DNA of 64,000 nucleotides from Desulfobacterales bacterium (GCA_963662235.1 OY759308.1:182109-246108), one strand, 5' to 3'. Shown: positions 17,795-41,063, counted from the stretch's first letter. The notes: generated from the sequence alone by a model not told the origin. A program made the numbers and translations.

Positions 17795-17798
17795 AAGG

Positions 17799-20947: not shown

Positions 20948-21063
20948 CCCAAAAAGCTCGCTCCCAAGCTCCTGCTTGGGAGCGTATATCTTCTGATAGT
21001 GTGCGTTTTTTGTTTTGTATGCGTTCCCAAGCAGGAGCTTGGGAACGAAGTTGGTAGGGACAA
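20948..21063 (+). repeat. REP-like repeat B (two GC-rich hairpins), direct repeat of 19190-19313
   Basis: Contains CGCTCCCAAGC-tcct-GCTTGGGAGCG and CGTTCCCAAGC-agga-GCTTGGGAACG. Confidence 0.8.
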
Positions 21064-21121
21064 GAACTTGAAAACAAAATTGGGAGAGGGCAAAAGCTTG
21101 GGAACGAAATTAATTATTTAT

Positions 21122-21586: not shown

Positions 21587-21960
21587 AAAGGACTCTTTTA
21601 TTGAAGCAATAAAATGTATTTTAAACCTAAGGCTTAAACCACAAAAACCCAAACCTAAAAGGAAAAATAAGTAAGGTGTCCCCAGAATTCTCAGAATGTC
21701 CCACACTTCAAAATAAGATACTTTAGTGTTGAGACCCTGATTCTCTTTCGCCTATCGTCGAGCCCTCTTAATCTTCCTTAAAAGGGAGAGACAAAAATTT
21801 CTTTAGTTTCAAAGCTATTAGGTTTTAATGTATAATTTTTTTCATTCTTTTATAAGTATGCACAAATCTACGCAGGCTATTGGTGACGCATTTCAACTTA
21901 GCATTCTTTTATTAAAAATCATATGCTTGACATTTAATGCATACCGTTATAGTTGTGACT

Positions 21961-22236
21961 ATGATAAAAAATTTTAAATGCAAGCATACACAAGCCCTTT
22001 ATGAAGGAAATAGCCCAAAGCAATTTAGAACTTTTCAGGCACAAGCAGAACGCAAGCTCCAAATGCTTGACAGTGCAGTCGAATTGCTTGATTTACTGTC
22101 TCCACCCGGTAATCGATTTGAAAAATTAGGAGGCGACAGACATGGGCAATACAGCATAAGAATCAATAAACAATGGCGTGTGTGCTTTTCGTGGTCTGAT
22201 GAACCATATAATGTGGAGATAACAGACTATCATTAG
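21961..22236 (+). CDS. higB: HigB-type toxin (RelE/ParE superfamily killer protein)
   Basis: MIKNFKCKHTQALYEGNSPKQF...PPGNRFEKLGGDRHGQYSIRINKQWRVCFSW...NVEITDYH is the typical HigB (COG3549) pattern. The ATG at 21961 is preferred. Confidence 0.85.
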   Translation: MIKNFKCKHTQALYEGNSPKQFRTFQAQAERKLQMLDSAVELLDLLSPPGNRFEKLGGDRHGQYSIRINKQWRVCFSWSDEPYNVEITDYH

Positions 22237-22244
22237 GAGAAACT

Positions 22245-22544
22245 ATGAATAATGTGCGAGCAATCCATCCAGGAGAAATAATCAAAGAAGAGTATTTAAA
22301 ACCATTAAATATGAGTGCTAATGCTTTGGCTATTGCTTTACGCGTGCCGGCACCTCGGATTAATGATGTGATAAGACAAAAGAGAGGAATTAGTGTTGAT
22401 ACTGCCCTTAGATTGGCCAGGTACTTCAACACCACCCCACAATTTTGGATGAATCTGCAAATAAGTTATGACATCAAAATGGCCAAACAAAATGTGCTAA
22501 AAATAGAAAATGAAATTATTCCTTTACAAGCTATAACTGCTTGA
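22245..22544 (+). CDS. higA: HigA-type antitoxin (XRE-family HTH)
   Basis: IHPGEIIKEEYLKPLNMSANALAIALRVPAPRINDVIRQKRGISVDTALRLARYFNTTPQFWMNLQ is canonical HigA/VapI. It starts 8 nt after higB. Confidence 0.9.
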   Translation: MNNVRAIHPGEIIKEEYLKPLNMSANALAIALRVPAPRINDVIRQKRGISVDTALRLARYFNTTPQFWMNLQISYDIKMAKQNVLKIENEIIPLQAITA

Positions 22545-22667
22545 AAATGCAAGAGAAAATATTTTGGAAGACACCTTACTTAATTATTGGCAAAAAGATT
22601 TATATTTCAAATTATGTATAATTTTTTTGATTTTACTATTAAATCTAAACTTACATTTTTTTAAACC

Positions 22668-24116
22668 TCATAAAGAGAGGTTTTTTTTTACAGTTCTTCT
22701 GTCTAATTGAGTAATTTTGCTGACTTCTTCTATTGTTTTATGGCTTTGATATAAAATTTTGCAATATCTTGAAAGAAGCTCTTTGGCGGTTAAATTCTCT
22801 TTTTTAATGGCACTGCAAAACTTTTCCATTTCTCCATAAGAATTTTCAAAATTATCTCCTTTATATTCCCCTTTAAGCAAAATTCTATGCACGCATTGTT
22901 CAAGCTCTTTGACATTTCCATTCCATAAATAAAATTGACCAAGTTGTTCCTTTATCTTTTTTTTTAAGCTTTTTGTAAGTTCTTTATTATATTCAACGCC
23001 AAGTTTAGAAAGGATTGAAATGAGAAGCTCGTCCAATTCTTTTGGTTCTTCTTTAATTCTTTCTCTTAATGGAGGGATTGTAATAATATCGGAACTTAGA
23101 CGAGATAAAAATTCGTCTCTAAAAATTGTGTTTTTTTTGTCTGTGAACAAGCTGTTTTCTGTTGAGGCAATTATTCTGCCCTTAAAATGCTCTTTTTTTC
23201 TACTGCCGACAGGCAAGAATAATCTGTCTTGCAGGAGACTAACAATTTTCATTTGGACGGAAAAAGGGAGCCTCTCAATTTCGTCTAAAAAGATTGCGCC
23301 ATATTGGCTACATTTTTGAAGTACCCCTTCATATTTTTCTTTTTTATTTTCATATCCGAAAATCTCTTTCTCGATATCTTGTGTAGAAAACTCTGATAGA
23401 CTTAAGGCTATGAAAAGCTCATTAAAATTAGCCTGAAATTTTTTTGTTTTTATATCAAATGGAATAAAAGATGAGCTTCCCACAATTCTTGCTGCAAGGC
23501 TTTTTCCTGTGCCTCTTTCGCCTAACATTAAAGTTGAAAAATCTTGCATTTTATTAAGAAGATATTTTTCATATAATTCTATGTCATATGTAAAAACGCT
23601 GTCCCATAAATTTCTTCTTAATTTTTTCATAACATTGCTACTGCCAATGAGTTCTTTGTATATGAAAAAAAATGCTCTTCTCATTTGAAAAAAAAGAGCA
23701 AAATATTTAACAGCATCAATTTTGATGAACCCTTGTTTTTCTAAAAGCCCAATAGCTTCATCGGCAAAATCAACTGTTAGGTTTGTATTGTCTCTAAATT
23801 GCTTATAAATTAATGCATCAAATTTTTTTCTAAACAAAGTGAAGGCTTGAAAAAGCAGGGCATATTTGACCAAAACTTGGTCTTCTTCATCTTCATATAG
23901 AGTGAAATTGCTCCTTTTTTCCTGCTCAAGTTTTACAACTATTTTTTCAATTTCGTATCTGGCGGTTTCTATTCTTTCTACTCTTTTTGCATTCTTAGAA
24001 AGCTTTGATATTTGGCATTCTGTTTCAACAAGTTCATCTGTAAAAGGGTTTGTAAGGCTTGCTTTTTTTACAAGTTTTAAAAATGCTTTTTCTCTTACGC
24101 TTAATTTTATTGCCAT
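22668..24116 (-). CDS. AAA+ transcriptional regulator related to bacterial enhancer-binding proteins but lacking the GAFTGA loop; C-terminal Fis-type HTH
   Basis: Walker A GERGTGKSLAA, Walker B GAIFLDEIERL, arginine-finger region RIIAST and PPLRER are present. FGYENKKEKYEG replaces FGHEKGAFTGA. The C-terminus has TIEEVSKITQLDRRTVKKNL. The ATG at 24116 is preferred because the ORF-track start lies in a MITE fragment. Confidence 0.7.
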   Translation of the reverse strand: MAIKLSVREKAFLKLVKKASLTNPFTDELVETECQISKLSKNAKRVERIETARYEIEKIVVKLEQEKRSNFTLYEDEEDQVLVKYALLFQAFTLFRKKFDALIYKQFRDNTNLTVDFADEAIGLLEKQGFIKIDAVKYFALFFQMRRAFFFIYKELIGSSNVMKKLRRNLWDSVFTYDIELYEKYLLNKMQDFSTLMLGERGTGKSLAARIVGSSSFIPFDIKTKKFQANFNELFIALSLSEFSTQDIEKEIFGYENKKEKYEGVLQKCSQYGAIFLDEIERLPFSVQMKIVSLLQDRLFLPVGSRKKEHFKGRIIASTENSLFTDKKNTIFRDEFLSRLSSDIITIPPLRERIKEEPKELDELLISILSKLGVEYNKELTKSLKKKIKEQLGQFYLWNGNVKELEQCVHRILLKGEYKGDNFENSYGEMEKFCSAIKKENLTAKELLSRYCKILYQSHKTIEEVSKITQLDRRTVKKNLSL

Positions 24117-24314: not shown

Positions 24315-27300
24315 TCATAATTTTATAGAATATTTTTTGTCTATTTTGGAGATTTTAATCATTTCAAAATTGTCTATTTCAATAAATACATTACCTGACT
24401 TGTCGGTCAAAATAAGTTTGTAGGTGTTTGTGTTTTCATTATCAGACATTTTTTCAGTTATACAAAAATATTCTTCATTTTTTTTTGGATAGCTATAAAA
24501 TTTCATATTTGCAATTTTTAAGGGAAGAACTAACATATCGGTTTTTAAAAATTCAAATATTCCGCCTGTTTGGAACATTGCATCAACTATTACCACATTG
24601 CTTAAAAATTTTGGTTCTTTTTCATTCTTAAAAAACTCTTTATCCGATTTATCCATAATTTTACTGATTAAAAGTTTGCCGTCATAATGAGAAATTTCTT
24701 CTATTGTTTTAAAAAGCCCCTCCATAAAAAGGCGTTTTGGGTGGTAAATTAAAGATGCCAGATTATCATTAATTTGAAGTTTATTAAATTCAGGTAACGC
24801 TATTTTTTTAGAAGGAAGTTTATTGTTGTCAAAATAAAAAGAACCTTCATAGTGAAGTGTTTCGTTGAATATTTTTTTCTTTTGAAAAAACGAAGTTATT
24901 TTACACTTGCATAAATTATCGTTTAAAACTGCTTCAATCTCTATTTCTTTATCTTTTTCTTTTAAGATTTTAATGCCGTAAGGAATTGAAAAATCAGAGA
25001 CAGCAACAAGCTTTTTGTTTTTTGAATTTAAAAGATAGAAAGCTGCTTCTGCCATTGCCTCTATTCCTGTTGCTCCTAAAAAAATCGGGATATCATCTTT
25101 GCTGTGATCTTTTAGAAACAAGTCATAAGACAAAGAAAGCTTTCTTTTAAATTTTGCTTTGTTTTCATCTATAAAGCTTATTTTATCTAAAAATGGCATT
25201 AGTTTTTCTTGTGCAAGCAACCTGTTTATATCAAATTCATAATCTATCCCTGTAAAAACAGCTTCTATATTATCATCTAAAAGGTCGTCTAAAAAAAACT
25301 TTATTCCATCTTTTGGCTCTAAAAAACTTATTTTCTTTTCTTTGAGAACATATTCAACACTCGATTTTGTTGCCATTCCTATTTTGTTCCATGCTGTCCA
25401 GTCATAAATTTTATATTGTTTTGAAGGGTTTAATGAGGCTTCTTTTTGAACAATTTTACCAAGCATATCGTTTGCAGAAGTATAATCGGTTTGTCCTTCG
25501 TTTCCGAACTTTGCGGTTACAGAAGAAAAAGCGATGAAAAATCTATAATTAGCAAAACTCTTTAAAAGATTAAAAGCTCCCAAAATTTTGGTATCAAAAA
25601 CCTTCGAAAAAGAATCTAACTCTTTTTTTTCTATAAAATTACTCTCCTCTACTCCTGCCGCATGAATTATACCGTCTATGTTTTTTATATCGCTTGCAAA
25701 CTCATCTAACTGTTTTGCATCAATAACAGAAACAGGCTTGTAAATAGTGTCTATATTAAGGCTTCTTAACTCTTCTATATTTTTCTTAACTTCTCTTGCT
25801 CTTTTTATTTTTGCAGCTTGTCTGCTTGCTTCAACAGGTTTCATATTTGGGTTTTCTTGCATTACAAATGAGATAAGTTTGTCATCTTTTATGTTTTGCA
25901 ATTCTTTTTTTTCTTCTATATTACTTCTTCCCAGAATTATAAATTTTGTTTTATATTCTTTGCCAATGTTTTTTAATATCTCAAAGGTTATTCCACTTCC
26001 TCCTCCAGTTACTAAAATCGTATCATTTTGTTTTATAATATTTGTGTTTTCTTGGATTTTGCTTTCCTCAAGTTTTAATACAAATCTTTGTCCGTCTTTA
26101 TAAGCTACTTCAAGCTCATTTGTTTCTGTTTGAATTTCATTAATAAATAAATTGATTGTTTTTTCTACATTTGAGCTGTTTGCAAAATCTACCATTTTAC
26201 AAGAAGTGTTTTTAAATTCCTTATTAATGCTTTTAAGCATTCCGCTTATTCCAGCAAAAACAGGATTAATATCGATGTTTTTTTCAATATATGGAATAAC
26301 AACAGAGTTAAAAGCACAAGATGCTATGATGCCATCTTCTTTATTTATAGAATTTTGCAAAGTTTTGACGATGAGAAAAAAAGACTTTATTGCCTTTGAA
26401 AGCTTAATTGGATTTTGTGTTTTTTCAAAATAGTAATTGATGGGAGCAAAGTGTATAAAACCGTCTATATTGCTGTTTTTTATTTTTTGAAGTTCTTCTT
26501 GGATATTATTTTTATTTTCAAAAAGCTCAAAATTGTTTTTCCCTATTTCAATTATATTTGCATCTGTTTTCTTTGCAAACTCATCAGCAAAACCATAATT
26601 GTCAAAACTTACAAGCAATGTCTTATTCTTTAGTGTTTTTGTTTTGCCTTCTAATTTTTTTGTTACAGGCTTAATCAAAAATCTTTTTACATTCTTTTGC
26701 GTATCTGTTTGTGCTCTTTCATCTTCTTTTTGTTGTGTGTTGGCTATTTTCTCTTGTTTCTCTGAAGTCTCGTTTAAGATAAAATTGGTAAGTTTTTTTA
26801 TTGTGTTAAGTTCAACTAACTTTAAATCTTCTGGGACTTTAAAATTGAATTTTTCTGCAATTTCTCCAAAGATTTCAACTTGCTTAATTGAATCAATTCC
26901 CAAATCTGCTTCCATATCCAAATCATCTTCAAGCATATCAGTTTCATAGCCTGTTTGTTTTGCAATAATTTGCTTTATTGTTTCAATTTGATTTTCATCT
27001 GCTTTTAGAGTTGTTGTATCTTTTTTTTGCTCTACTTCTTTTGGTTCATTTGATGTTAGTGTTTGTGTTGATGAGGTTTTAGCTATTATAAAATCGGTTA
27101 GTTTTTTTATTGTGTTAAGTTCAACTAACTTTAAATCTTCTGGAACTTTAAAATTGAATTTTTCTGCAATTTCTCCAAAAATTTCAACTTGCTTAATTGA
27201 ATCAATTCCCAAATCTGCTTCCATATCCAAATCGTCTTCAAGCATATCAGTTTCATAACCTGTTTGCTTTGCAATAATTTGCTTTATTGTTTCAATTTGA

Positions 27301-30300
27301 TTTCCGCTATTTTCTGAAGTTGTTGCTATCTTATTTTCTTGCTTGGTTTCTTTTTGTGTATTTGTTTTTTCATCACAATCTTCTTTTGAAATTTTACTGC
27401 CGTGAGCTTCAACGCACAATGCGTTATTTGTTATTGTTAAAACAGGTCCTTGACTACCTGAAATATTTTGCAACCATTTATAATAGACATTGTTATTTTG
27501 GATGGTTCCATTTTCAAGTTTTTTTAACATTAGAAAAGCAAAGTGAGAGCCAAAGCCTGCTGCTGTGTGAATGCCATATTCAAAGTCATCATACAGTTTT
27601 TTGTTTAGGCATAAATCTTTAAAATTATCTTCAATATTGATTAAATTTGCAATTGGAGGAATTTGCCCTTTTTGCAAAGCCTTAACAAGAACAGCGTCTT
27701 CAATTCCTGCCCCCAATGTGTGTCCTGTGTAGCCTTTGGTGTTTGCAATGGCTATTTGAGGATAATGATTTGGAAAAGCTTTTCTTAATGCATTTATCTC
27801 AGCATCTGCAGAACCTCCACGCTTTGGAGTGTAGGTTTCATGGGACATAAAAATTAGTTTTTTTGTGTAATAATCTTTATTTAGGTTATGGTTTTTTTCC
27901 ACTCTCTTAACGAATTTCTCCATTTGCACAGCCAAATGATTTACATCTATGTTGAAAGTGTGAAATCCGCTATTGCCAAGATATGAACCAAGTATTTCTG
28001 CCTGACCATTTAATCCTCTTTTTCTAAGGCACTCTTCTTTTTCTATAACAAGCCCAACTGCTCCTGCTCCAAGTATTGTTCCGTTTCTTTCTGCATCAAA
28101 AGGCTTTGCGGCTTCTTCGACTTCTTTTTTGATAGTTGCAGCTCCAAGCGATAAAAATGCAGAGCCAACCCATTGATTTTGAATGGAAGAAGTTACATTG
28201 TCCCCCCCAATAATTATAACTCTTTCACATCTTCCACATCGTATCCAATCGTTTGCTACTCCTATTGCTTGAGTTGTTGAAGCACAAGCTCCATTTAAAA
28301 GAATATTCGGACCTTGTGCTTTTATAAACCTTGCAAGATGAGCAGAGCCTAAAGGGCACATATTTGCTGCAAAATTTCTGTCAAACTGATACGAAGGATA
28401 TTCTTTGTTTCTTTCTTTAACTTTAAAAAACCAATTTGTGATTTGCTTTTTAATATTACTATCTTTAACCGATTCCATTAAATGATAATAAATATTTTCA
28501 AACTCTTCATATGGCTCTACATAGAACTTGTGATAATAAAATCTGTTCATCTCACCCATAACAGTTTCATTATTTGGAAAAGCAGAGCTGACAATTACAC
28601 CTGTTTTACCTTGCATTTCTTTTGGAAGAGCAAAACCCTCTGGAATTTGTTTTCCTAAAGAGGTTTGTTTGTAGTTCATAACAAGAGGAATGTTTGCATC
28701 TTTTAATGCTTCAATTCCTGCAGCAACAGCAAGTGCCATTGCACTGTCATATTTAAACTCAACGCCATATTCGTCATTTAAATCAAAAAAACCTAATTGC
28801 CCTGCAAGTTGGATAACATCTTCTTGATTTTCTATTTCAACAAATCTGGCATTGCCATCGGCTTGTTTAAAAAGTCTGTTTATCTTCTTTTCTGTTATTT
28901 TCTTTTTGTCGTCTTCTGAAATTGGTTCTATGAAGTTTGTGCCGTTTAATATCTTTTCAAAATTATCACTTGAAAAAACCTTTCTTGCTTTTCCAGGAAG
29001 ACCTATTGAAACACCCGAGATGACAATTTTGCCATCATAAAAATTATATTTTTCCATAGAGGCAAGAGCATCTTCTTTTTTGTGCTGTATGAACTCTTTA
29101 TATAAAACTTTATCTAACACTTCTTGATTTTGTTTTTTAAAATCTTCAAAAGCATGGCTCTTGATATATTTTTCATCTTTATCAAAAGAGAGTGTTTCTT
29201 TTTTTTCTTCAAAAGGGGTTTTGTGTATTTTATCTATATAGTTTAAAAAGTTATCAAAGCTTTTTAACTGACCAACTTTAACATCAACTGCAGGTATAGA
29301 ATCGTAATATGCTATATTGATATCTTTGAGAAGGGTTCCAAGAAGTTTATTTGGTCCAATTTCTAAAAAAAGACTTTTTTGAGCTTCATAAACATATTCT
29401 ATGCTTTTTATAAATTCCACAGGTGAGGCTATTTGTTTTGAGAGCAATTCTTTTACTTTTTTTATATCATTTGGATATGGTTTCCCTGTGACATTTGATA
29501 TGATTTTTGAATAATTTGCCGTGTTACTAAAAATATAATCATCAAGGTGTTGCTTCATTTTAAAAGCAGCATCATCAAAAAGATTAGAGTGAAATGCACC
29601 AGAGAGTTTAAGTTTTATAAAAGGTTTTTTTATCGATTTTAAAAAGTTGCAAAATTTGTCAATATTTTCTTTAGTTCCTGATATTGCTGTTTGTTTTTTA
29701 CTGTTTTTGTTTGCGATAAAAACTTCGATTGAGCTTTGTCTTATTAGTTTTTCGCTTTGTCTTTCATCAACAAACAGAACCATTATTTTGCCTTGTGTTT
29801 TGCTTGTGCACTCTTTCATTAAATCTGCTCGTTTTAAAACAAGAGACATAGAAGATTCAAAATCAAGTATGCCATTACAAAAAAGTGCTGTGTATTCTCC
29901 TATGCTATGACCTACAAAATAGTTTGGAATAATATTTTTAGTTTGCCTTAAATGCTCATAAATAGAAGCACTTGATAAAAATATTGAAGGTTGGGTATTT
30001 TCGGTAAGATTTATTTCATTATTGTCAGAAAACATTAAATCTAAAAGAGAATATCCTCGTGATTTTTTAAAAATCTCTTCGCCTTTATCCATTGTTGTGC
30101 GAATCAAAGGATATTCTTTATATAATTCTTGCATCATATAGGCAGATTGAGCTCCTTGCCCAGACAGTAAAATAATGATGTTAGATTTTGTGTGGTTTTG
30201 GTTTTTTGCAATATAAGGCTCGGTTGAAACTGCTTTTTTGGTTTTATCAAAATCTATTGTTTTTTGAAGAATAGGAGAAAAGATTTCTTCTTCTTGATTG

Positions 30301-33300
30301 TCTTTTTGCTCATTTTTTTTGCTTAGAAAGGCAGACATACTTCCTAAAACCATATGTCCGTGATTGCCACCAATTCCATTCACATTGCTTGCTAAATAAA
30401 AATTGTCTTCTATCTTTTTTAAATTTGGATTTGCTTTTAAAATAGAATTTTTTTCTACGATGGAGTTCTCTTTCGAATATGCAAAGTTTGGCAAAATAGC
30501 TTTATTCTTTGTCATAAGAAGTAATTTGTTTAGAACAACAGCAGGATTGGCCGCTTTAAAATATGCAAATTGTGATTTTGTGTTGCCGAAAAAAATGTCG
30601 TTTGGAAAACTTGTTTCAATTGCTTGTTTTTCGACTAAATCAAATAATGGGTTAGATACTCCAAAAACATCAATATATTTTATCTCATTTTTTTTTATAT
30701 TTATTTTTTCGTAACAAGTTTCAATTGCTTTGCTATATGCTTCTTCAGAAGGAGATAAAAGATGCTTTGGGACACTTGAAGAAAAAGAGATACCTTTTAT
30801 TTCACCAATGATATCAAGATTGTTTTCGCAAGCTTTTTTATAAGTTGTTAAAATTTGAACAGCAGCACCTTCTCCCATAACATATCCTTCTGCTCTTTTA
30901 TCAAAAAAATAGTTGTCGTGCGTACTCAAAAGAGAAAGCCTTTTAAAAGCTATAATAACAGCAGGATATAAATTTGCATCAACTCCTCCTGTTATTGCAA
31001 AATCGAGCTGTTTTGTTTTAAGGTTTTCCATGGCTGTTTCAAAAGCAAAGGATGAAGAAGCACAAGAAGCATCTATAACAAAATTTTTGCCATTACAGTT
31101 AAAAAAATTGGCAACTCTTCCAGATACAAGATTTGATAAAAGACCTGTTGTTGTGTCTTCGGTGGTTGGTGAAAATCTTTTTTTAAGATTTGTAAGAAGC
31201 TTGTCTGCTATAATGTTTTTGTTTTCGGCATCAAATTCTTTTATAAATTTTTCTATAAGAGGAAGCCTAACTCTTAAAATATTTTCCGATTGATGTGTCC
31301 CTGATATTGTTCCAAATATAACTCCAATATTATTTCCATATCCAAAAAAATCTTCCATTTTTGCTTGGGATATTGCCTCAGATGTTGCATCAAGTGCAAA
31401 TTTTTGTGCATTGTCTATAAACTTTGCAGTAAATGGTGGAATTTTATATTTTGTGTTATTAAATTTATAATCGTCTATAATTCCTGCTTTGATATTTGGA
31501 ATGTGATATCCAGAAAGTTTATCTTCTTTTGCATAATAGTCGTTATGGAATTTGGAAGAAGGCATTGTATCTGATATTGATGTTTTGCCACTTTTTAGCT
31601 TTTCCCAAAAATCAGAAGAATTTTTCACATTTGGTAAAAGAGTTCCCATTCCAACAGCAACAATTCTGTCTTCATTAAAATCGTAAGATAAATCATTAAA
31701 AATTTGTCTTCTTGTTTTTTTATAAGCATCGGTAAATTCTTCAATAATTGAATGATAGTTAATTCCACCAAAACCATATGAGCTTATTGCAGATGCAAGA
31801 GGCATGTTTTTATTCCATTCTTTTGCTTCTTCAATAATATAGAAGGGAGAATCTTGTAAGTTATGGCTTCTGCTTAATTCTTCAAAAAGACCATTTGGAG
31901 GGAGTGTTTTATTTTTTATTGCAAGGATTGCTTTTATAAGCCCTGCCATGCCAGCCCCACCAAGAAGATGCCCTATTTGTGACTTTATTGAACTTATTCC
32001 GATTTTATTATTTGATTGATTGTAAACAGCTTTAAGGGCTTCAATTTCTGTTATATCTCCCATAATTGTTGAAGTTCCGTGTGCTTCAATAAAATCAATA
32101 TTGTTTAAATCAAAATCGTCTCTTAAATTTTTGATACATCGTTTAAGAGCAAGAACTTGCCCATTTTGGTTTGGTGCAGCTATGGCTTTCCCTTTTCCAT
32201 CAGAGCTTGCACCTAATGCTTTTATTAAAGCATAAATTTTATCTTTGTCTCTTATGGCATCTTTTGCCCTTTTTAAGATAACAACTCCAGCTCCTTCTCC
32301 CATCACAAAACCACTTGCTCTTTTGTCAAAGGGGTATGAGCCTATGTTTGATAATGCTCCAAGTTTGCAAAAACCAACAAAGGGCTCTGGAGCAAGATGA
32401 GAATTGACTCCTCCAATAATTGCCAAATCGCTTTTCCCCGATAAGAGTTCTTTTATTCCACAATCTAAAGCTGCAAAGCTTGTTGCACAAGCTGCATCAA
32501 CTGTGTAGTTTATGCCTTCTGCTCCTAAGTGATGAGCAATTCTGCTTGCTTCTATGTTTAGTGCAACAGTATGAACAGCTTCATATTTTGAACCATCTGA
32601 AAATTTTTCTTTTAAATAGTTTTTCAATTCTTTCTTTTTTTCATCACTTAAAGATTGAAACTCGTCTATTTGGTCTAAATAATACAAGATTTCAGGATAG
32701 CTATATTTGAAATGCAAATTGTTGTTTGTTTCATTGCCAAGGCAGCTTGCAACGATAACAGAGGTGTTTTTTCTTAATTTTTTTTTAAGTTTTGTGTCTT
32801 TTTCAATTATCTTTGCATCAAGTGCTGCTTGGAGGGCTGCTTCTAAAACTAATTGTTGGCTTCTTGAAAGATTTTTTCCTTTATTTTCTTCATAGCCATA
32901 TTTTTTCTCGTCAAATGTAAAAACATTATCTTTTATTACGCCTGCAAGAGAGGTGTAGGTTTTGTCTTCTTTTTTTTTATCTTCATCATAAAAAAGGTGA
33001 AAGTTGCAAAAACGCTCACTGTTATCGTGATTTATATCTATAATTGAATATTTTTTATTTACTATGTTGTTCCAAAAGGCTTCTTTGTCTTTTGCATCTG
33101 GATAAATGCACCCAATTCCAACTATTGCTATTTCATCATTTATGATATTTTTTTCATTCGTAAGAGCTTCTAACGAATTTAGATTTTTGTGAAGGGATTC
33201 TTTGTTGTCAAAATAGTTTTGATGAAGCTCTTTTATAGGCACTGTATAATCTGAAAAAACAACAGAATCGCCTGCCATAAAGTTGCCTTTTTCAAATTGT

Positions 33301-35213
33301 TCTTTTTCGTTAAATTGCTTTAATTCTTTAAAAACATTGTTTTCAAAAATAGGCTGAAATCCTTTTGAGGCAATAAGTAGTGCCCCAATGTTGTCTTGTT
33401 CAAATTCTTTTTTCCTTTTGCCCAAGTCTATGTTGTTTCTGATTCTGTCGTTTTCTCTTTTTAATATATTTTGAGTAAAAGGTGTTTTTATAACTCTTGA
33501 GGGCAAACCAACAGAACTTCCGATTAAAGAAGTTTCTTTGTTTTCTAAAACAACTTTTTGATAAACTGGTTTTATGGCAAGAGATTCTAATATCTCTTTG
33601 GTTGCAAGATAGGCTGTGCCAACTTGAATTCCTATTTTAAAACCTTTTTCATAAAGAAAGGCACTCATTCCGCTTATGAAAAAAGAGGCTGATTTGGTAG
33701 ATATTCCTCCTGCAAAAATAAGAGTGCTTCTGTTAGGGGTTATTTGATTTTCTAAAATTGTTTCAATTGCAAGCTCCCATAGTGTGAAGCTGCTTAATGC
33801 TCCAATATGACCGCCTGCTTCTTTTCCTTCAAATATGAAATTTGTACACTCGTTTTTTACAGCATTTTTCAAAAATGATGGAGTTGGTGTGTGTAGATAG
33901 GTTTTAGTTCCAAGCTCTTCTAATTTTTTTACATTGGCAGGAGAGCCTGCTGCAAAGAGAGCAAAGGGGACTTTGTGTTTTTTTATTATTTTGATATGGC
34001 TTTCTAAAGTTGGATTTAAGGCTTCGATTCCTATCATACCTGCACCAAAAGATTTTAACTTTTCTTCGTTTTTACCTTCTGTAATAATTTTATCTGCCAA
34101 ATTTGAAGGCAAGTTTCCTAATGCAAAGAAAGGCAAAGCTCCATTTTCAAAAACAGATAAGGCAAAATTTGCATTATCGCTTATATTTGCCATAGGTCCT
34201 TGAATGAGTGGGTATTTTGTTTTGTGCTCTTTTGCCAGCGTGCTATTTTCTTGCAACGGGTCAAAATCGTCTATTAGTGCTAATTTTTCGCAAGTTTCGC
34301 TAAATAGATAATGGACTATATCTTTTAGCTTTTTTGATTTTTTTACAAAATGTTTTGCAAAAACAGCATCTTGTCCAAGATAGAAAAGGGATTGCAGGGG
34401 TTCTGTGGAATTATCATTTAATTTTTTTATATTTGATTTTATAACTTCATAAAAAGCATTTTTTGCATCAGGATTGCCAATTAGTTCTAATTCTTTGAGT
34501 TTAAGCTCTTTTGTGATTTTTGTTCCGGGCTTTGAAAAAAATCTGTAATTATACCCAAGGTTTTGTCCTAAAACTTCTGTGTTGTTGTCTTCTAAGTTTT
34601 CGATTAATTTTTTAAAATTTGAAGATAAAGGAGCTTCGTCTGCAAGAAAAAATTGAGAATCTAAAACAATTCCGCTTGCACCACTTGCAAAAATTCCTGC
34701 TGTTGTATGAATGCCAACTCCGCCTTGAACAAAAATTGGAAGTTTTGTTTTTTCTAAATAAGTTTGCATTAGCACAAAAGAAGAAAGACCAGCGCCCCTT
34801 CCTCCTGCCTCACTCCCTTTTATGATAAGAGCGTTTGGAGATATTTTGCCTAACTTTTTTTCAATTTCAATATCAATGGTTTCAATGAAAAAAGGATTTT
34901 TTATGTTTGCATCATCAAATCGCTCGATATCCTCTAATGAATCATAATAAAAAATTATGGCATCTAAATTTCTTATATTTTTTTCTTTTAAAAAATTTAT
35001 AACCTCTTTTTCTTTAAAATTTAATCTTAATCCAAAAAGATGATTTGCGTTTGAAAGCTTTGTAATTGTTTCTGTAATTTCATCACTATCTAAAAACTCA
35101 CAATCTAAAACAGGCAGTAAACCTGCATCATCAATGGCTCTAAAATATTTTTCATCAAAACAAAATGATAAACAAATTGCAGGTAATTTTGAATTTATCA
35201 CTCTTTTAAACAT
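24315..35213 (-). CDS. Single-polypeptide PUFA-synthase-like (secondary-lipid) type I FAS/PKS megasynthase: ER'-ER-KS-KS*(His-less)-AT-KS-ACP-ACP-KR-DH
   Basis: 3632 aa. Positions below were counted on the translation.
- NMO/PfaD-like domains: aa ~1-310 (IKGSEAGGRG, VQGGVGI) and aa ~333-560 (YPLIQGPMA, FEGKEAGGH, FAGGIS).
- KS1, aa ~693-1160: DAACATS (C909), EAHGTST, SQIGHLLG.
- KS2, aa ~1183-1625: DASCASS (C1384), but DVFGVSN and KSQFAYF replace the two His motifs.
- AT, aa ~1678-1965: GQGAQ, GHSIGE, GAFHS.
- KS3, aa ~2062-2565: GACAST, SHETYTP, GYTGHTLG.
- ACPs: serines in DLGIDSI at S2672 and S2775.
- KR, aa ~3063-3285: VTGGGSGIT, YTSAN.
- PKS-type DH, aa ~3340-3632: LKDHSKDDIPIFLG, DAMFQ. 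Confidence 0.85.
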   Translation of the reverse strand: MFKRVINSKLPAICLSFCFDEKYFRAIDDAGLLPVLDCEFLDSDEITETITKLSNANHLFGLRLNFKEKEVINFLKEKNIRNLDAIIFYYDSLEDIERFDDANIKNPFFIETIDIEIEKKLGKISPNALIIKGSEAGGRGAGLSSFVLMQTYLEKTKLPIFVQGGVGIHTTAGIFASGASGIVLDSQFFLADEAPLSSNFKKLIENLEDNNTEVLGQNLGYNYRFFSKPGTKITKELKLKELELIGNPDAKNAFYEVIKSNIKKLNDNSTEPLQSLFYLGQDAVFAKHFVKKSKKLKDIVHYLFSETCEKLALIDDFDPLQENSTLAKEHKTKYPLIQGPMANISDNANFALSVFENGALPFFALGNLPSNLADKIITEGKNEEKLKSFGAGMIGIEALNPTLESHIKIIKKHKVPFALFAAGSPANVKKLEELGTKTYLHTPTPSFLKNAVKNECTNFIFEGKEAGGHIGALSSFTLWELAIETILENQITPNRSTLIFAGGISTKSASFFISGMSAFLYEKGFKIGIQVGTAYLATKEILESLAIKPVYQKVVLENKETSLIGSSVGLPSRVIKTPFTQNILKRENDRIRNNIDLGKRKKEFEQDNIGALLIASKGFQPIFENNVFKELKQFNEKEQFEKGNFMAGDSVVFSDYTVPIKELHQNYFDNKESLHKNLNSLEALTNEKNIINDEIAIVGIGCIYPDAKDKEAFWNNIVNKKYSIIDINHDNSERFCNFHLFYDEDKKKEDKTYTSLAGVIKDNVFTFDEKKYGYEENKGKNLSRSQQLVLEAALQAALDAKIIEKDTKLKKKLRKNTSVIVASCLGNETNNNLHFKYSYPEILYYLDQIDEFQSLSDEKKKELKNYLKEKFSDGSKYEAVHTVALNIEASRIAHHLGAEGINYTVDAACATSFAALDCGIKELLSGKSDLAIIGGVNSHLAPEPFVGFCKLGALSNIGSYPFDKRASGFVMGEGAGVVILKRAKDAIRDKDKIYALIKALGASSDGKGKAIAAPNQNGQVLALKRCIKNLRDDFDLNNIDFIEAHGTSTIMGDITEIEALKAVYNQSNNKIGISSIKSQIGHLLGGAGMAGLIKAILAIKNKTLPPNGLFEELSRSHNLQDSPFYIIEEAKEWNKNMPLASAISSYGFGGINYHSIIEEFTDAYKKTRRQIFNDLSYDFNEDRIVAVGMGTLLPNVKNSSDFWEKLKSGKTSISDTMPSSKFHNDYYAKEDKLSGYHIPNIKAGIIDDYKFNNTKYKIPPFTAKFIDNAQKFALDATSEAISQAKMEDFFGYGNNIGVIFGTISGTHQSENILRVRLPLIEKFIKEFDAENKNIIADKLLTNLKKRFSPTTEDTTTGLLSNLVSGRVANFFNCNGKNFVIDASCASSSFAFETAMENLKTKQLDFAITGGVDANLYPAVIIAFKRLSLLSTHDNYFFDKRAEGYVMGEGAAVQILTTYKKACENNLDIIGEIKGISFSSSVPKHLLSPSEEAYSKAIETCYEKINIKKNEIKYIDVFGVSNPLFDLVEKQAIETSFPNDIFFGNTKSQFAYFKAANPAVVLNKLLLMTKNKAILPNFAYSKENSIVEKNSILKANPNLKKIEDNFYLASNVNGIGGNHGHMVLGSMSAFLSKKNEQKDNQEEEIFSPILQKTIDFDKTKKAVSTEPYIAKNQNHTKSNIIILLSGQGAQSAYMMQELYKEYPLIRTTMDKGEEIFKKSRGYSLLDLMFSDNNEINLTENTQPSIFLSSASIYEHLRQTKNIIPNYFVGHSIGEYTALFCNGILDFESSMSLVLKRADLMKECTSKTQGKIMVLFVDERQSEKLIRQSSIEVFIANKNSKKQTAISGTKENIDKFCNFLKSIKKPFIKLKLSGAFHSNLFDDAAFKMKQHLDDYIFSNTANYSKIISNVTGKPYPNDIKKVKELLSKQIASPVEFIKSIEYVYEAQKSLFLEIGPNKLLGTLLKDINIAYYDSIPAVDVKVGQLKSFDNFLNYIDKIHKTPFEEKKETLSFDKDEKYIKSHAFEDFKKQNQEVLDKVLYKEFIQHKKEDALASMEKYNFYDGKIVISGVSIGLPGKARKVFSSDNFEKILNGTNFIEPISEDDKKKITEKKINRLFKQADGNARFVEIENQEDVIQLAGQLGFFDLNDEYGVEFKYDSAMALAVAAGIEALKDANIPLVMNYKQTSLGKQIPEGFALPKEMQGKTGVIVSSAFPNNETVMGEMNRFYYHKFYVEPYEEFENIYYHLMESVKDSNIKKQITNWFFKVKERNKEYPSYQFDRNFAANMCPLGSAHLARFIKAQGPNILLNGACASTTQAIGVANDWIRCGRCERVIIIGGDNVTSSIQNQWVGSAFLSLGAATIKKEVEEAAKPFDAERNGTILGAGAVGLVIEKEECLRKRGLNGQAEILGSYLGNSGFHTFNIDVNHLAVQMEKFVKRVEKNHNLNKDYYTKKLIFMSHETYTPKRGGSADAEINALRKAFPNHYPQIAIANTKGYTGHTLGAGIEDAVLVKALQKGQIPPIANLINIEDNFKDLCLNKKLYDDFEYGIHTAAGFGSHFAFLMLKKLENGTIQNNNVYYKWLQNISGSQGPVLTITNNALCVEAHGSKISKEDCDEKTNTQKETKQENKIATTSENSGNQIETIKQIIAKQTGYETDMLEDDLDMEADLGIDSIKQVEIFGEIAEKFNFKVPEDLKLVELNTIKKLTDFIIAKTSSTQTLTSNEPKEVEQKKDTTTLKADENQIETIKQIIAKQTGYETDMLEDDLDMEADLGIDSIKQVEIFGEIAEKFNFKVPEDLKLVELNTIKKLTNFILNETSEKQEKIANTQQKEDERAQTDTQKNVKRFLIKPVTKKLEGKTKTLKNKTLLVSFDNYGFADEFAKKTDANIIEIGKNNFELFENKNNIQEELQKIKNSNIDGFIHFAPINYYFEKTQNPIKLSKAIKSFFLIVKTLQNSINKEDGIIASCAFNSVVIPYIEKNIDINPVFAGISGMLKSINKEFKNTSCKMVDFANSSNVEKTINLFINEIQTETNELEVAYKDGQRFVLKLEESKIQENTNIIKQNDTILVTGGGSGITFEILKNIGKEYKTKFIILGRSNIEEKKELQNIKDDKLISFVMQENPNMKPVEASRQAAKIKRAREVKKNIEELRSLNIDTIYKPVSVIDAKQLDEFASDIKNIDGIIHAAGVEESNFIEKKELDSFSKVFDTKILGAFNLLKSFANYRFFIAFSSVTAKFGNEGQTDYTSANDMLGKIVQKEASLNPSKQYKIYDWTAWNKIGMATKSSVEYVLKEKKISFLEPKDGIKFFLDDLLDDNIEAVFTGIDYEFDINRLLAQEKLMPFLDKISFIDENKAKFKRKLSLSYDLFLKDHSKDDIPIFLGATGIEAMAEAAFYLLNSKNKKLVAVSDFSIPYGIKILKEKDKEIEIEAVLNDNLCKCKITSFFQKKKIFNETLHYEGSFYFDNNKLPSKKIALPEFNKLQINDNLASLIYHPKRLFMEGLFKTIEEISHYDGKLLISKIMDKSDKEFFKNEKEPKFLSNVVIVDAMFQTGGIFEFLKTDMLVLPLKIANMKFYSYPKKNEEYFCITEKMSDNENTNTYKLILTDKSGNVFIEIDNFEMIKISKIDKKYSIKL
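26787..27303. repeat. Tandem duplication (309-bp period) encoding the two ACP domains
   Basis: 26787-26995 and 27096-27303 are nearly identical at the nucleotide level. The linkers between them differ. Confidence 0.9.
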
Positions 35214-35429
35214 AATCTTTTGTCCTTATAGTTTTAATTTATTTGCGTAGCTTCTTGCACGCCTATATTGCTTTGTTATTAAAGCAATAAAAATGCACTA
35301 ATCATTTTATGCAAGGTAAGATATTCATTTTTTGTACATTGGTCAAGATTTTTCATAAATGGCTTTTTTAATGGAGGATATAGCGATTGTAGAAAATATG
35401 TTCTTTGAAAAATATAAAGGTAAATTTGA

Positions 35430-35479
35430 AATGGAATTATCTGATAAGATCAAAAAGGGCAAAGAGAGGACTTGACCCC
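35430..35479 (+). mobile_element. Right-end fragment (50 bp) of the IS-like element, abutting the truncated recombinase gene
   Basis: AATGGAATTATCTGATAAGATCAAAAAGGGCAAAGAGAGGACTTGACCCC aligns with 40895-40953, including the terminal repeat. Confidence 0.75.
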
Positions 35480-35886
35480 ATTTATTGATTCTGAAAGAAT
35501 GGTAATAAATATAAAGGGTGCAAAGGGCATGAAAGATAGAATATCTTTGCTTTCGAAGCATTTGCTTGAATTATTACGAAATTACTTCAAAGCATATAAA
35601 CCTAAAAAATATCTCTTTGAAGGTCAAAATGGAGGTAAATATTTGCCAACCAGTGTGGCAAATATTTTAAAGAAAGCGGTACTGAAAGCTGGAATCTGTA
35701 AAACCGTGACTACCACATATGCTACGCCACAGTTTTGCAACTCATCTTCTTGAACAAGGCACTGATTTAAGATATATTCAGGATTTGTTGGGGCATAATA
35801 GTTCAAAAACGACTGAAATTTATACTCATGTATCAAAAAAGGCAATTGATAAGATTAGAAACCCAGTCAATGATTTTTTTGATTGA
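35480..35886 (+). pseudogene. Tyrosine recombinase (XerC/D-like), 5'-truncated and frameshifted C-terminal fragment
   Basis: ...IDSERMVINIKGAKGMKDRISLLSKHLLELLRNYFKAYKPKKYLFEGQNGGKYLPTSVANILKKAVLKAGI.KTVT / frameshift near 35710 / [56 protein letters not shown]. The catalytic-region motifs KDR, H.LRH, LLGH and IYTHV are present. Confidence 0.85.
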
Positions 35887-35980
35887 GGAGATCAAAATGA
35901 TAAAAGAAAAATATATACAATTGTGCTTAGCCCGCCAGTTTGGAGAAATAAACACAATAGAGTTTACACAATCGTTAGCG
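35887..35980 (+). other. attI-like junction, copy 1, ending in core site GTTAGCG (35974-35980)
   Basis: This 94-bp segment follows the recombinase stop and is duplicated at 42278-42371. Strong similarity between the copies falls off just past the GTTAG core. Confidence 0.6.
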
Positions 35981-36047
35981 CCAAGTATAGAAAAAACCGT
36001 GCAACAGTAAATAATAATTGAACCAATATCAGGTAATAAATAAACAA

Positions 36048-39000
36048 ATGAATATAGAATGGAATACATTACGAGCATTTAACGGCGATGTTAAAAATGG
36101 ATTTGAAGAACTTGTTTGTCAATTAGCAAGAGCAGAACAAATTTTAAACAAATCTAAATTCATTAGAGTTGCTGCACCTGACGGTGGAGTTGAAGCGTAT
36201 TGTATCCTTTCTGATAATACAGAATATGGTTGGCAAGCCAAGTTTTTTGCGTCAATGGGCGATTCACAATGGACGCAACTTGATAAATCATTTAAAACAG
36301 CCTTTGCAAAGCACCCTGATTTGGTTAAGTATTACATCTGTATTCCATTAGATAGACAAGATCCGAGAATAACAATTACAAAGGGAAACCGTAAAGGGCA
36401 ACAAGTGAATCACTTTATGGATAAGTGGAACGCGAAAGTAACAGAATGGGAAGCATTTTCAAAATCAAACAACAGAACTATTGAATTTGAATTTTGGGGT
36501 AATTCAGAAATCTTTGAACGCTTAAGCAAAAAAGAAAACGAAGGGAAACTTTACTATTGGTTTGGCAAGGAAGAATTTTCTGATGAATGGTTCAAACAAA
36601 AACTTGATGAGAATATTAAAAATCTTGACAAACGCTACACCCCTGAACTGAATTTTGATTTACCTATTGCCAAGATATTTGACGGAATTAGCAGAGATAC
36701 TTATTTCAACGACCAATTCAATTCATATTTTGATGATTTACTTAGGCATTTTAGAAAAGCTGTTACTCATATTAAAAAAGCAAAGGTAAAAAACTATATT
36801 GATAAAATCAATTCAATAGTCACAACATTCAGACAACAATGTGAGCAAATTGATTTTGCTGAAATAAGTATTATTGACAATATTGGTTTGATATCACTGT
36901 TAGAAAGTGTCAGGAAAATTATTAACGATTTAATTCAAAAATTATATGAAATTGATTTCGCACTCAAAAAAGAAAAGAAAGAAAAAAGTAAATACGAAAG
37001 CGATACAAATAAATTTGGTTGGGATATAGAGCATTTCAGAAAATTGAATAGTTCAATTTATGAGTTTATTAATTTTCTAAATAGCACAACGGTTCTTTTG
37101 TCAAATAACCCTTTTATGCTTTTAACAGGGGAAGCAGGAATTGGAAAATCACATTTACTTGCTGATGTTGCAGTAAAAAGAAATAAACGAAATCAATTCT
37201 CAATTTTATTGCTTGGTCAACATTTCACAGAGGAAGAACCTTGGAGTCAAATCAAAAAACAACTTCAATTAAATTGTGAAAGAGATACATTTCTTTCTTC
37301 GCTAAATGCAAAAGCTGAAACAACACAGAGCAGAATTTTAATTCTGATAGATGCAATAAATGAAGGAAAGGGAAAAGAGTTGTGGAAAAATTATATTGCA
37401 GGTTTCATTACCGCAGTAAAAAAATTTCCAAACATAGGTGTGGTTTTTAGTATTAGAACTTCTTATGAAAAACTTTTAATTCCTAATCCCTTAAAGGAAA
37501 AGGATGAAATTTTAAAAGTCATTCATTATGGTTTCTCATACCACGAATACGAAGCATCAAAACGTTTTTTTGAAAATTTTGGTATTAAACAACCAAGTAT
37601 TCCTTTGCTTCACCCTGAGTTTTCCAATCCGCTATTCCTAAAATTATTTTGCGAGGGATTAAGTAAAAAAGGATTGCACGTAATACCTGACGGTTACGAG
37701 GGCATTTCTACCGTCCTTAATTTTTATCTTGAAGCTATTAACAATACAGTTTCGGAAAAACACAAATTGCCTGAAAACTTAAATCTTACTCAAAAAGTTG
37801 TAAAAAAAATCGCAAGTCAAATTGCTGATACTGATAATACTTACATAAAGTTTGATAATGCGTATAGTACTGTTACTCAATTTGCCAAAGACAACTCAAT
37901 TACCGAACCTGCTCAATTTTTTGAGGATTTAATACGGGAAGGACTTCTTACTCAAAACGTGTATTGGGAAAAAGGTGGAAATCCTTTTAACGGTGTGTAT
38001 ATTTCGTATGAAAGATTCAGTGACCATTTGGTTTGTGCTTACTTGTTGGAAAATCATTTTGACAAAAAGAATCCAACAAGCTCTTTTGCTGTCGGTAATA
38101 AACTACATAGATTGCTTGAAGACCAATATAAATCATATTACAACAAAGGTATTATTGAGGCTCTTTCAATTCAATTACCTGAATTGGCAAACATAGAACT
38201 ATTTGAAGCTGCACCTCACGCAAAGGAATTTAAAATTGTGGCACAGGCATTTGTTGAAAGCATTATTTGGAGAAAAAAAGAAACAATCAATGAGAAACTA
38301 AAAGATTACATAAATGAAGTCGTAATTCAAAAACACGACTTGCATGATGATTTTATTAGCACAATTCTTTTAATTACATCACAGCCGAAACACTATTTCA
38401 ATAGCGATTTCCTTCACAATCATTTGATGAAATTCAGTATGCCTGATAGAGATTCTTGGTGGACACCTTTTATTCATCATCAATACCCAAGCTATTCAGA
38501 TGAAATCACATCTATTCAACGAATGATTGATTGGGCTTGGACAGATGATAAACGAGAGAATATTTCTGACGAATCAATTCGCTTAATGTGTCAAACTTTG
38601 TTTTGGTTTACAACAAGCACCAACAGGGCGTTAAGGGATTCTACAACAAAAGCAATAATTTGTCTTTTAGAAGAACGAATAAGCGTTTTGATACAACTCA
38701 TTAAAACATTTGAACAGGTTAATGACCCTTATGTTTTGCAACGAGTATTTGCGGTTGCGTTTGGTTGTGCTGTTAGAACGAGCAAAACTGAATCTTTAAA
38801 AGAATTAGGAAACTGCATTTATGAATCGGTTTTCAATACGAAAAAAGTAATTCCTGACATTTTGTTAAGGGATTACGCAAGAGGAATTGTTGACTACGCA
38901 GTTTTCAAAGGTATCAAGTTTGAGTTTAATTTAAAGAAAATAAAACCTCCTTTCAAAAGCGATTTGCCAACTTCATTTCCAAGTAATGAAGATATTGAGA

Positions 39001-40316: not shown

Positions 40317-40328
40317 AAGAAAACCAGG

Positions 40329-40459: not shown

Positions 40460-40466
40460 AAAAAAC

Positions 40467-40953: not shown

Positions 40954-41063
40954 TTCAATTACAAATCATTTCAGCGGACAGCTAATGCTCGCCACTGGAT
41001 TTCACGTCATATGGGAATAAAAATATAGATTGACGATGCCTCCTATTTGTCTTATGTTTAATT

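Follow-up and report, generated by a model that had tools for sequence, protein, structure and literature searches.

What does a bacterium make with a single polypeptide of 3632 residues that joins the parts of several lipid-synthesis enzymes, and is such a chain a genuine enzyme at all? The question is raised by a megasynthase gene on the minus strand, at 24315..35213, of a 64,000-nucleotide stretch of DNA from a Desulfobacterales bacterium (GCA_963662235.1 OY759308.1:182109-246108), which as a whole is called the window here. A preliminary description, made from the sequence alone, regarded the protein as resembling the synthases of polyunsaturated fatty acids (PUFA), with functions fused that pfa systems keep on separate proteins, and expected a saturated or otherwise unusual lipid rather than a PUFA. 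The analysis presented below establishes that the gene is a new, atypical member of the Type S family, which was listed in 2011 from the genome of Desulfobacterium (Desulforapulum) autotrophicum HRM2 and which is common in sulfate-reducing bacteria and little studied. As to function, the reading that we favour, and consider rather probable in view of the motifs preserved, is that of a fatty-acyl synthase of type I, intact, iterative and fully reducing, whose saturated chains on acyl carrier protein (ACP) would supply the membrane and which is possibly the main fatty acid synthase (FAS) of its host.

Domain order and catalytic sites

One unbroken open reading frame (ORF) with an ATG start covers 24315-35213 on the minus strand (3632 aa and a stop codon, by ORF list and translation), and its G+C content of 28-33% is that of its surroundings. 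Pfam searches with the whole protein and with nine segments of it, with which NCBIfam agrees, give the order ER'-ER-KS-KS*-AT-KS-ACP-ACP-KR-DH (ER, enoyl reductase; KS, ketosynthase; AT, acyltransferase; KR, ketoreductase; DH, dehydratase), the layout of a Type S-like single-chain fatty-acyl synthase. The length and the exact order counted in the preliminary description are thus borne out, together with the fusion of ER, a pair resembling a KS and a chain-length factor (CLF), AT and a KS-ACP-KR-DH unit in one chain. The FabA-type DH pair had been called absent, and domain calling turned up none that had been overlooked: FabA, MaoC and thioesterase families have no match in the synthase in Pfam even at E <= 1, the C-terminal PS-DH is the only hotdog domain at that threshold, and no unassigned stretch could fit such a pair. 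The stretches left blank by Pfam are explained by the extended N-terminal half of the third ketosynthase, KS3, and by the structural subdomain of KR. Conservation of motifs was judged across 50 aligned members, the window protein and 49 relatives of near-full length.

The N-terminus holds two modules, ER' (aa 1-320; 34254..35213, minus strand, as for all domains below) and ER (aa 321-690; 33144..34253), which had been taken for PfaD-type reductases and prove to be of the FabK type instead. The FabK model TIGR03151 is the sole NCBIfam match for both, with 52.7 bits over positions 29-300 of 307 for ER' and 85 bits for ER, scores that for these fused domains lie far below the equivalog cut-off of 453/453.1; in Pfam, NMO matches ER' weakly (38.9 bits, best stretch aa 119-262) and ER with 56 bits (aa ~400-590). 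The solved sequence relatives of the modules are FabK enzymes, and an AlphaFold model of ER'-ER is compact (pLDDT 85.4, pTM 0.90), with Foldseek target-normalised TM-scores of 0.81-0.84 to FabK as against ~0.64 to FabX, 0.47-0.52 to ER domains of trans-AT polyketide synthases (PKS) and 0.41-0.48 to PfaD (6lkc, 4z9r). FabK (PDB 7l00, 2z6i, 5gvh) is the best match of both modules in sequence and in fold; unlike this free-standing enzyme, the modules are duplicated and built into a megasynthase. Since they share only 29% identity over 125 aa, the duplication must be old, and the first module is the more divergent of the two (52.7 versus 85 bits), as had been noticed from the sequence.

ER combines the FabK-type TIM barrel with an intact motif I (QGPM341ANIS; xPMxG-like, in contact with flavin mononucleotide, FMN) and an intact motif III (EAGGH469, with the catalytic His), as these motifs are defined in PMC13311796. 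ER', modelled alone (AF2 pLDDT 88.3), is likewise a complete FabK-like barrel (Foldseek TM 0.75-0.81 to FabK), of which the fold is all that is kept: motif I is absent and the catalytic His is replaced by Lys or Arg in 50/50 aligned members (Arg139 in the window protein). ER domains of FAS, PKS and Pfa systems act as dimers, and two thraustochytrid ER domains form a heterodimer (PMC13311796). As FabK, PfaD and the thraustochytrid domains work in this manner, ER' is probably a structural pseudo-partner, that is, a permanent, predicted non-catalytic dimer mate of ER, a role suggested by the model and by analogy.

Alternatively, ER' (or DH) might possess a dehydrogenase/isomerase activity like that of FabX or FabA, in which case the product would not be fully saturated and the synthase would yield anaerobic cis-monounsaturated chains, the precursors of 10-methyl and cyclopropyl fatty acids, which are typical of Desulfobacter relatives. 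Purifying selection on ER', its many invariant polar residues (its invariant residues include D37, E39, R63, E135, Q150, Q187 and R224) and its preserved GG and G..G loops speak for such an activity, as do the fact that Helicobacter FabX is also an NMO/FabK-family flavoenzyme, found among the fold matches, and the reported absence of fabA and fabZ from HRM2. However, ER' resembles FabK (TM 0.75-0.81) better than FabX (0.52-0.59), it has neither an invariant Cys for an Fe-S cluster nor an invariant His, its FMN-contacting motif I is destroyed, and DH is an ordinary PKS-type double hotdog. Given above all the better FabK match and the want of an invariant Cys or His, a FabX-like role of ER' was judged unlikely, and a product that is not fully saturated on this account has only a slight chance of being the true one.

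KS1 (aa 691-1175; 31689..33143) is a canonical ketosynthase with Pfam scores of 177.8 and 110.1 bits (aa 693-1107), corresponding to PfaA model positions 8-468, and its Cys909, His1045 and His1082 are kept family-wide. KS2 (aa 1176-1660; 30234..31688; Pfam aa ~1182-1578), written KS* above, keeps its Cys (Cys1384) and has both His replaced, here by Phe1517 and Tyr1551, in 50/50 members, as judged by the N- and C-terminal KS families of Pfam and by alignment to PKS KS domains. With these residues KS2 can probably be acylated yet cannot decarboxylate malonyl-ACP, and it may either assist KS1 as a CLF-like partner or provide a site for transfer or holding. That KS1 and KS2 form a KS/CLF-like pair, as proposed earlier, agrees with their collinearity with the KS-CLF didomain structure of PfaC (6riw; E 2.8e-56); typical CLFs, those of Pfa systems included, lack the Cys that KS2 keeps. 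KS3 (aa 2011-2620; 27354..29183) is a divergent, FabF-like ketosynthase, weak in Pfam (50.9 bits, aa ~2285-2535) and matched by a FabF model with 131 bits, whose triad of Cys2310, His2458 and His2498 is seen by alignment to FabF 1j3n. The family-specific motif SHET[YF]TPxxGGSA, which contains His2458 (SHETYTP in the window protein), is conserved throughout and aligns with FabF, not with PKS KS domains.

The remaining catalytic domains are those of a complete reducing cycle. AT (aa 1661-2010; 29184..30233) is of the malonyl type, with 118.8 bits for Acyl_transf_1 (aa 1683-1961), 215 bits for a FabD model (E 1.4e-63) and conserved motifs (GHS1770IG, Arg1795, GAFH1875). KR including its structural subdomain (aa 2851-3310; 25284..26663) matches with 91.2 bits (aa 3065-3261) and covers PfaA model positions 1811-2226; its NADPH motif TGGGSGIT and Tyr3244 are conserved. 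The C-terminal DH (aa 3311-3632; 24318..25283), a PKS-type double hotdog, is recognised by PS-DH (24.7 bits) and PKS_DH_N (17.8 bits) over aa ~3346-3623, and its His3370 and D3544xxxQ are conserved in the relatives that reach this far.

Between KS3 and KR lie two tandem ACP domains (26664..27353; Pfam PP-binding at aa 2641-2709 and again, after an offset of 103 aa, at aa ~2744-2812). They constitute a direct repeat of 309 nt (103 aa) with 85% DNA identity, with copies at 26695-26994 and 27004-27303, which was detected by a repeat search and not reported by Tandem Repeats Finder. The motif LGIDSIKQVE occurs twice, LGIDSIK being shared with Pfa-type synthases, and the attachment positions are occupied by the serine that PF00550 expects, Ser2672 (codon 27198-27200) and Ser2775 (codon 26889-26891), each encoded by TCA. 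The relatives are different: Thr stands at the canonical attachment position in all 142 ACPs of the 48 other aligned members, within the motif LG[IV]DTVKQVE (for example at aa 2604-2925 of locus L079 and aa 2663-2768 of L050), and among aligned members Ser-type ACPs are confined to the window protein and a relative that is 98% identical to it (L083). The number of ACPs per protein ranges from 1 to 6 across the family, and even these two genomes differ, with two copies in the window and one in L083. Among representatives clustered at 50% identity, the full-length Type S-like proteins (~3,000-4,000 aa) carry Thr, whereas shorter ER-KS-MAT-ACP-KR proteins (MAT, malonyl acyltransferase) have the usual LGIDSIKRVE, save those in which the motif search found nothing. 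The S36T variant of Escherichia coli ACP is reported to be unmodifiable and non-functional (PMC3340395), so that in the relatives either a dedicated phosphopantetheinyl transferase (PPTase) accepts Thr or some other explanation applies; no report of phosphopantetheine linked to Thr came up in a literature search. The Thr feature belongs to the relatives, not to the window gene, whose enzyme is their natural Ser-type counterpart.

The gene and its Type S relatives

The preliminary description had allowed for the possibility that the ORF is an artefact joining separate pfa genes. An assembly or frameshift error, or a decaying pseudogene, might be suspected from two long-read metagenome loci (L001 and L002) in which the region is divided among several called genes, but the splitting there likely stems from frameshift errors. 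The exact window protein has been recorded from a contig of 2.13 Mb. The same ORF is carried by an independent second assembly (L083; contig_2 of ERZ21862600, 1.6 Mb), in which the ortholog is 98% identical over 2737 ungapped residues and shorter by 103 aa, exactly one ACP repeat. Between the two, dN/dS is 0.15 overall and 0.04-0.20 per domain, with 0.20 for ER' and 0.11 for KS2; all synthase domains are under purifying selection. Unbroken ORFs of at least 3,300 aa exist in about 45 further genomes, nearly all of them longer than 3,570 aa; five complete ORFs measure 3572-3676 aa, and where the contig suffices the family lies at ~3,570-3,720 aa. Only the Desulfoluna synthase terminates after its three ACPs, at 3108 aa, so that KR-DH is probably a separate gene there. 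All catalytic motifs of KS1, AT, KS3, KR, DH and ER are conserved in the window protein and the 49 homologs (for DH, in relatives reaching that far). Taken together, these findings leave an artefact or pseudogene with a vanishingly small probability. Every member shows the losses in ER' and KS2, and purifying selection acts on the two domains; they are therefore to be seen as designed features, not decay.

How widespread is this design? Relatives were sought in a one-genome-per-species collection with patterns derived from the ER' alignment (patterns from the window protein alone found none), and the window genome itself lies outside the scanned species representatives, as no 100% match occurred. 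A relative is encoded by 173 stretches of the collection, from which 80 loci were kept. They are mostly from Desulfobacterales, including Desulfoluna limicola, D. spongiiphila, a metagenome-assembled genome (MAG) of Desulforapulum (formerly Desulfobacterium) autotrophicum and the Olavius Delta4 symbiont, and they also comprise several Spirochaetota and one 'Bacteroidales' MAG; a Leptospirales MAG shows the identical domain order. A protein search with ER'-ER retrieved 43 proteins with up to 49% identity, of which most named ones are marked 'partial' and nearly all those with names come from Desulfobacula, Desulfobacteraceae, Desulfotignum, Desulfosarcina and Desulfamplus MAGs. Against 1.84 billion representatives, ER' retrieved 18 clusters at E <= 1e-30, whose full-length members measure 3,529-4,041 aa, and around these a broader set of proteins of 2,200-3,600 aa that carry an NMO-type module at the N-terminus. 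The fusion, which appeared as an oddity beside the split pfa genes, is rather the norm across the family in the 173 stretches, and its order had been tabulated in 2011.

In that study (Shulse & Allen 2011, PMC3098273), where types are defined by KS phylogeny and 'Type S' is reported from one genome only, the HRM2 protein YP_002604438 is tabulated as ER-KS-CLF-AT-KS-ACP3-KR, with a PPTase gene (YP_002604439) next to it. HRM2 is further reported to be without fabA and fabZ, and Type S is suggested as a possible core fatty acid synthase (PMC3098273). Beyond this study a literature search, within the library covered, found nothing on the synthase in Desulfobacula or Desulfobacterium. When the Pfam and NCBIfam calls are compared with the supplementary table, the window protein displays the Type S order ER-KS-CLF-AT-KS-ACPn-KR on one chain. 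It nests in a clade with the ortholog from the D. autotrophicum MAG (L079; 47% identity, full length) and other Desulfobacterales, a placement that comes from a full-length alignment and a simple neighbour-joining distance tree, not from the KS tree of Shulse and Allen; it sits on a long branch, and the closest protein is that of Desulfobacterales MAG L013 (52.6% identity). The 2011 table gives HRM2 one ER and no DH, whereas the window protein and its relatives have the tandem ER'-ER at the N-terminus and the PKS-type DH at the C-terminus; HRM2 has a PPTase gene next door, whereas the 64-kb window has none; and L079 bears four ACPs with Thr attachment sites as against two with Ser.

The relation to the Pfa systems (PfaA/B/C/D; OrfA/B/C in thraustochytrids) is one of resemblance. 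Shared features are a KS...ACPn-KR-DH unit that matches the PfaA model, an ER of the NMO family and, with the thraustochytrids, two ER barrels per system (PMC13311796). The succession of a KS and a CLF-like KS recalls PfaC (6riw), though KS2 keeps the Cys that Pfa CLFs lack. The window protein nevertheless scores 757 bits with the PfaA model TIGR02813, below the cut-off of 1010.1, and differs in having only two ACPs, a FabK-type ER, everything in one chain and one ER barrel that is predicted to be catalytically dead. Pfa systems possess a FabA-type DH pair, and as the window synthase is without it, no cis double bonds would be introduced. 'PUFA-synthase-like' stands as a likeness only. The ER-KS-MAT-ACP-KR synthases (Azotobacter and Parvularcula in the table of Shulse and Allen) likewise share an N-terminal NMO-type ER fused to a KS, and many proteins of this kind, of 2,200-3,000 aa and with the Ser-type ACP motif LGIDSIKRVE, are 26-35% identical to ER' across the entire barrel; their chain, ~1,000 aa shorter, contains a single ER and one KS and lacks the KS-CLF-AT insert.

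Predicted product and physiological role

From the intact motifs the following cycle can be proposed. The malonyl-type AT would charge the two ACPs with malonyl units, and Claisen condensations would be carried out by KS1, in a KS/CLF-type didomain with the His-less KS2, and by the FabF-like KS3; the two competent ketosynthases would probably split the chain-length ranges between them, as is thought for the pair of KS in PUFA synthases. Every beta-keto group would then undergo full reduction by KR, the PKS-type DH and the FabK-type FMN reductase, so that a saturated acyl-ACP results. That every cycle should give a saturated chain follows from the combination of a malonyl-type AT, two competent KS, KR, a PKS-type DH and a FabK-type ER with the lack of a FabA-type DH, and the expectation of a saturated product and not a PUFA is thus shared with the preliminary description, the intact KR, DH and ER predicting it. 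Since the synthase contains no thioesterase, release would fall to a separate enzyme, probably by handover to an acyltransferase; 30 related loci, but not the window, have a linked gene of the PlsC type. Less certain than the chemistry is the physiological role, namely the provision of membrane acyl chains and possibly the function of main FAS of these bacteria.

Neighbouring genes in the related loci bear on this role. The PlsC-type acyltransferase gene directly follows that of a transcriptional activator in the 30 loci, and an Sfp-type PPTase adjoins the synthase in 8 related loci, chiefly spirochaete-type loci without the activator, where TetR genes are found too. In L001, a JGI metagenome contig, a 1958-aa fused acetyl-CoA carboxylase (biotin carboxylase, biotin carboxyl carrier protein and carboxyltransferase) lies directly downstream of the synthase at 21023-22607. 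In L084 an ER'-ER-KS gene fragment with 31% identity (8408-12675) is preceded at a distance of 22 nt by a carboxyltransferase (ACCA) gene; its neighbourhood also includes genes for biotin-protein ligase, thiolases, acyl-CoA dehydrogenase and electron-transfer flavoprotein, and the name that NCBI gives to its protein ends '[Candidatus Thor…'. Either archaea hold a copy of a bacterial-type fatty-acyl synthase here, or the contig was wrongly binned. For the window, the statement that no PPTase or thioesterase is nearby is upheld: the other ORFs scanned across the 64 kb give no match to either, and a tblastn search with a relative's PPTase was also empty. It does not extend to the relatives, where PPTase, PlsC-type or acetyl-CoA carboxylase genes often adjoin. 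A tblastn search for FabZ, FabA and AcpP was empty for the window and all fetched flanks, the rest of the genomes not being covered. The genomic context of the relatives supports a lipid role, and the window copy is atypical in this respect.

Regulation in the relatives introduces the most serious competitor of this reading. Beside the synthase in 53 fetched loci stands an NtrC-family activator of ~496 aa, almost always divergent and upstream. Of 77 related loci, 66 have a -24/-12 element, TGGCA[CT]-N5-TTG, within the 330 nt that precede the synthase, compared with 0.16% of shuffled sequences; the strict sigma-54 consensus TGGCA[CT]-N5-TTGC[AT] had matched only 14 of 65 loci, and it was relaxed because the -12 element of Desulfobacula is TTG[A/T]. 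In the Desulfobacula clade the invariant palindromes TGTRCAATTTTGTACA and TGCATAAAATGCA lie ~100 nt upstream of an invariant TGGCAC-N5-TTG, in the intergenic region between activator and synthase (9780-10010 in L034, with equivalents in L040, L043, L046, L052, L058, L061, L064, L065, L067, L070 and L073). The palindromes are probably binding sites of the activator and TGGCAC-N5-TTG is probably a sigma-54 promoter.

Such a circuit invites the view that the same enzyme makes a specialised, conditional 'secondary' lipid (for the envelope, for storage, as an ether-lipid precursor, or a very long or 3-hydroxy chain), while FAS II produces the bulk of the membrane fatty acids. The kinship to secondary lipid synthases is in keeping with it, and so are the dedicated sigma-54 activator, the conserved promoter and the palindromic upstream sites in most relatives, the TetR regulators of the spirochaete loci and an ACP number varying from 1 to 6, as in throughput-tuned Pfa systems. 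On the other hand, HRM2 is reported to lack fabA and fabZ (PMC3098273), the parts are FAS II-like (FabK-type ER, FabF-like KS3, FabD-like AT), the linkage to PlsC-type acyltransferase and acetyl-CoA carboxylase fits bulk lipid synthesis, and a very large share of the retrieved Desulfobacula and Desulfobacteraceae genomes carry the synthase. On balance a secondary lipid is a real but lesser possibility, and a synthase of saturated membrane chains is the reading to which we give preference.

Several considerations weigh against that preference. A dedicated sigma-54 activator and promoter in most relatives suggest conditional expression, which would be unusual for a housekeeping FAS. Lipids of the Desulfobacter type include monounsaturated, cyclopropyl and 10-methyl chains, which need a cis double bond, and the domain set does not obviously provide one. 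The part of ER' as a dimer mimic is drawn from a model and an analogy, and its invariant residues could reflect a residual or different activity. Lastly, PlsC-type, PPTase and acetyl-CoA carboxylase genes are all lacking in the window.

The window copy has departed from the regulatory scheme of its relatives. Directly downstream of the synthase and on the same strand, with no predicted terminator between them, lies the gene of an NtrC-family AAA+ regulator (22668..24116, minus strand; the mechanical ORF extends to 24158, the likely start being the ATG at 24116). It matches Sigma54_activat (PF00158, E 4.9e-22), shares 39-45% full-length identity with the activators of the 53 loci and possesses the AAA+ core common to NtrC1, FleQ and PspF, its PDB matches; for its N-terminal ~195 residues neither Pfam nor the solved structures gave a match. 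GAFTGA or GSFTGA occurs in every one of the 53 orthologs, whereas the window protein reads YENKK-----EKYEG, the loop being removed by a five-residue deletion. It is nonetheless identical to its counterpart in the 98% relative at 481 of 482 residues, with dN/dS of 0.012, and because selection is so strongly purifying despite the loss of GAFTGA, the regulator has probably been rewired rather than lost. In this it resembles GAFTGA-less members such as TyrR and Rhodobacter capsulatus NtrC, which have ceased to act through sigma-54. The non-coding region that precedes the window synthase (35214..35470, minus strand) contains no -24/-12 element of sigma-54 and a weak sigma-70-like match at 35346-35318. 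A single match to the Desulfobacula palindrome with two mismatches (35301-35313) was not above chance and was rejected as evidence.

What would follow if the synthase were indeed the main source of fatty acids in Desulfobacteraceae? The textbook FAS II would then be inapplicable to a major group of marine sulfate reducers, and the reading of sulfate-reducer lipid biomarkers and isotope signatures would be affected. A still broader proposition is that the family is an unrecognised single-chain type I FAS, in which a PUFA-synthase scaffold bears components of the FAS II type (FabK, FabF, FabD) and a dead ER acts as dimer partner, that it is the main FAS of Desulfobacteraceae and some spirochaetes, that nearly all its members use Thr-linked phosphopantetheine, and that the window protein is a Ser-type, sigma-54-uncoupled variant; as a whole this is speculative and rather doubtful. 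The protein is a compact natural design, a single chain that comprises all the parts for saturated-chain synthesis and includes a pseudo-ER and a His-less KS; it could inform the engineering of PUFA and PKS synthases. The window copy represents the one lineage found with ordinary Ser-type ACPs and without the sigma-54 circuit, for which reasons it should be the easiest to express with standard PPTases, and it can serve as a built-in control when the Thr-type ACPs of the relatives are considered.

Surroundings of the synthase in the window

The simplest view of the host is that of a divergent, low-GC (about 30%) lineage resembling Desulfobacterales. Taxonomic signals in the window disagree at the genes for ClpB and ribosomal protein S1 (8952-11492 and 5119-6864, plus strand). 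The best named matches of ClpB are from Candidatus Cloacimonadota, at ~60% identity, with its closest relatives (63-66%) on contigs of ~1.55 Mb; those of S1 are from Desulfobacterales, at 62-68% (Desulfobotulus, Desulfocicer, Desulfatiferula). Horizontal transfer into a Cloacimonadota-like host had been considered and was dropped, as S1 is Desulfobacterales-like and the synthase nests in Desulfobacterales diversity. The metabolic and flagellar genes of the window fit a Desulfobacterota-like anaerobe.

Between the synthase and the frd/suc genes lies a variable island (35472-47579, plus strand), which encodes a tyrosine-recombinase fragment (35472-35753), a 1432-aa NACHT-like NTPase (36018-40316), an NB-ARC/NACHT protein (42415-45096), a PD-(D/E)XK nuclease (45255-46535) and a DUF6602 protein (46632-47579), all on the plus strand. 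At the position of the island the 98% relative has instead a TIR-domain protein, two Bac_DnaA_C (DnaA C-terminal-domain) proteins and a BrnT/CopG toxin-antitoxin pair. Close to the regulator, on its downstream side, are a HigB-like toxin gene and an HTH_3 antitoxin-like gene, of 99 aa each (21937-22544, plus strand). Finally, the segment 14001-20000 stands out with a G+C content of 38-42% against a background of ~30%; it is associated with an ABC iron-type transporter (15925-18950), a pentapeptide-repeat protein (19382-20755) and two TrmO-domain genes (13963-16016), of which one is a fusion with FmdE and a zinc finger.

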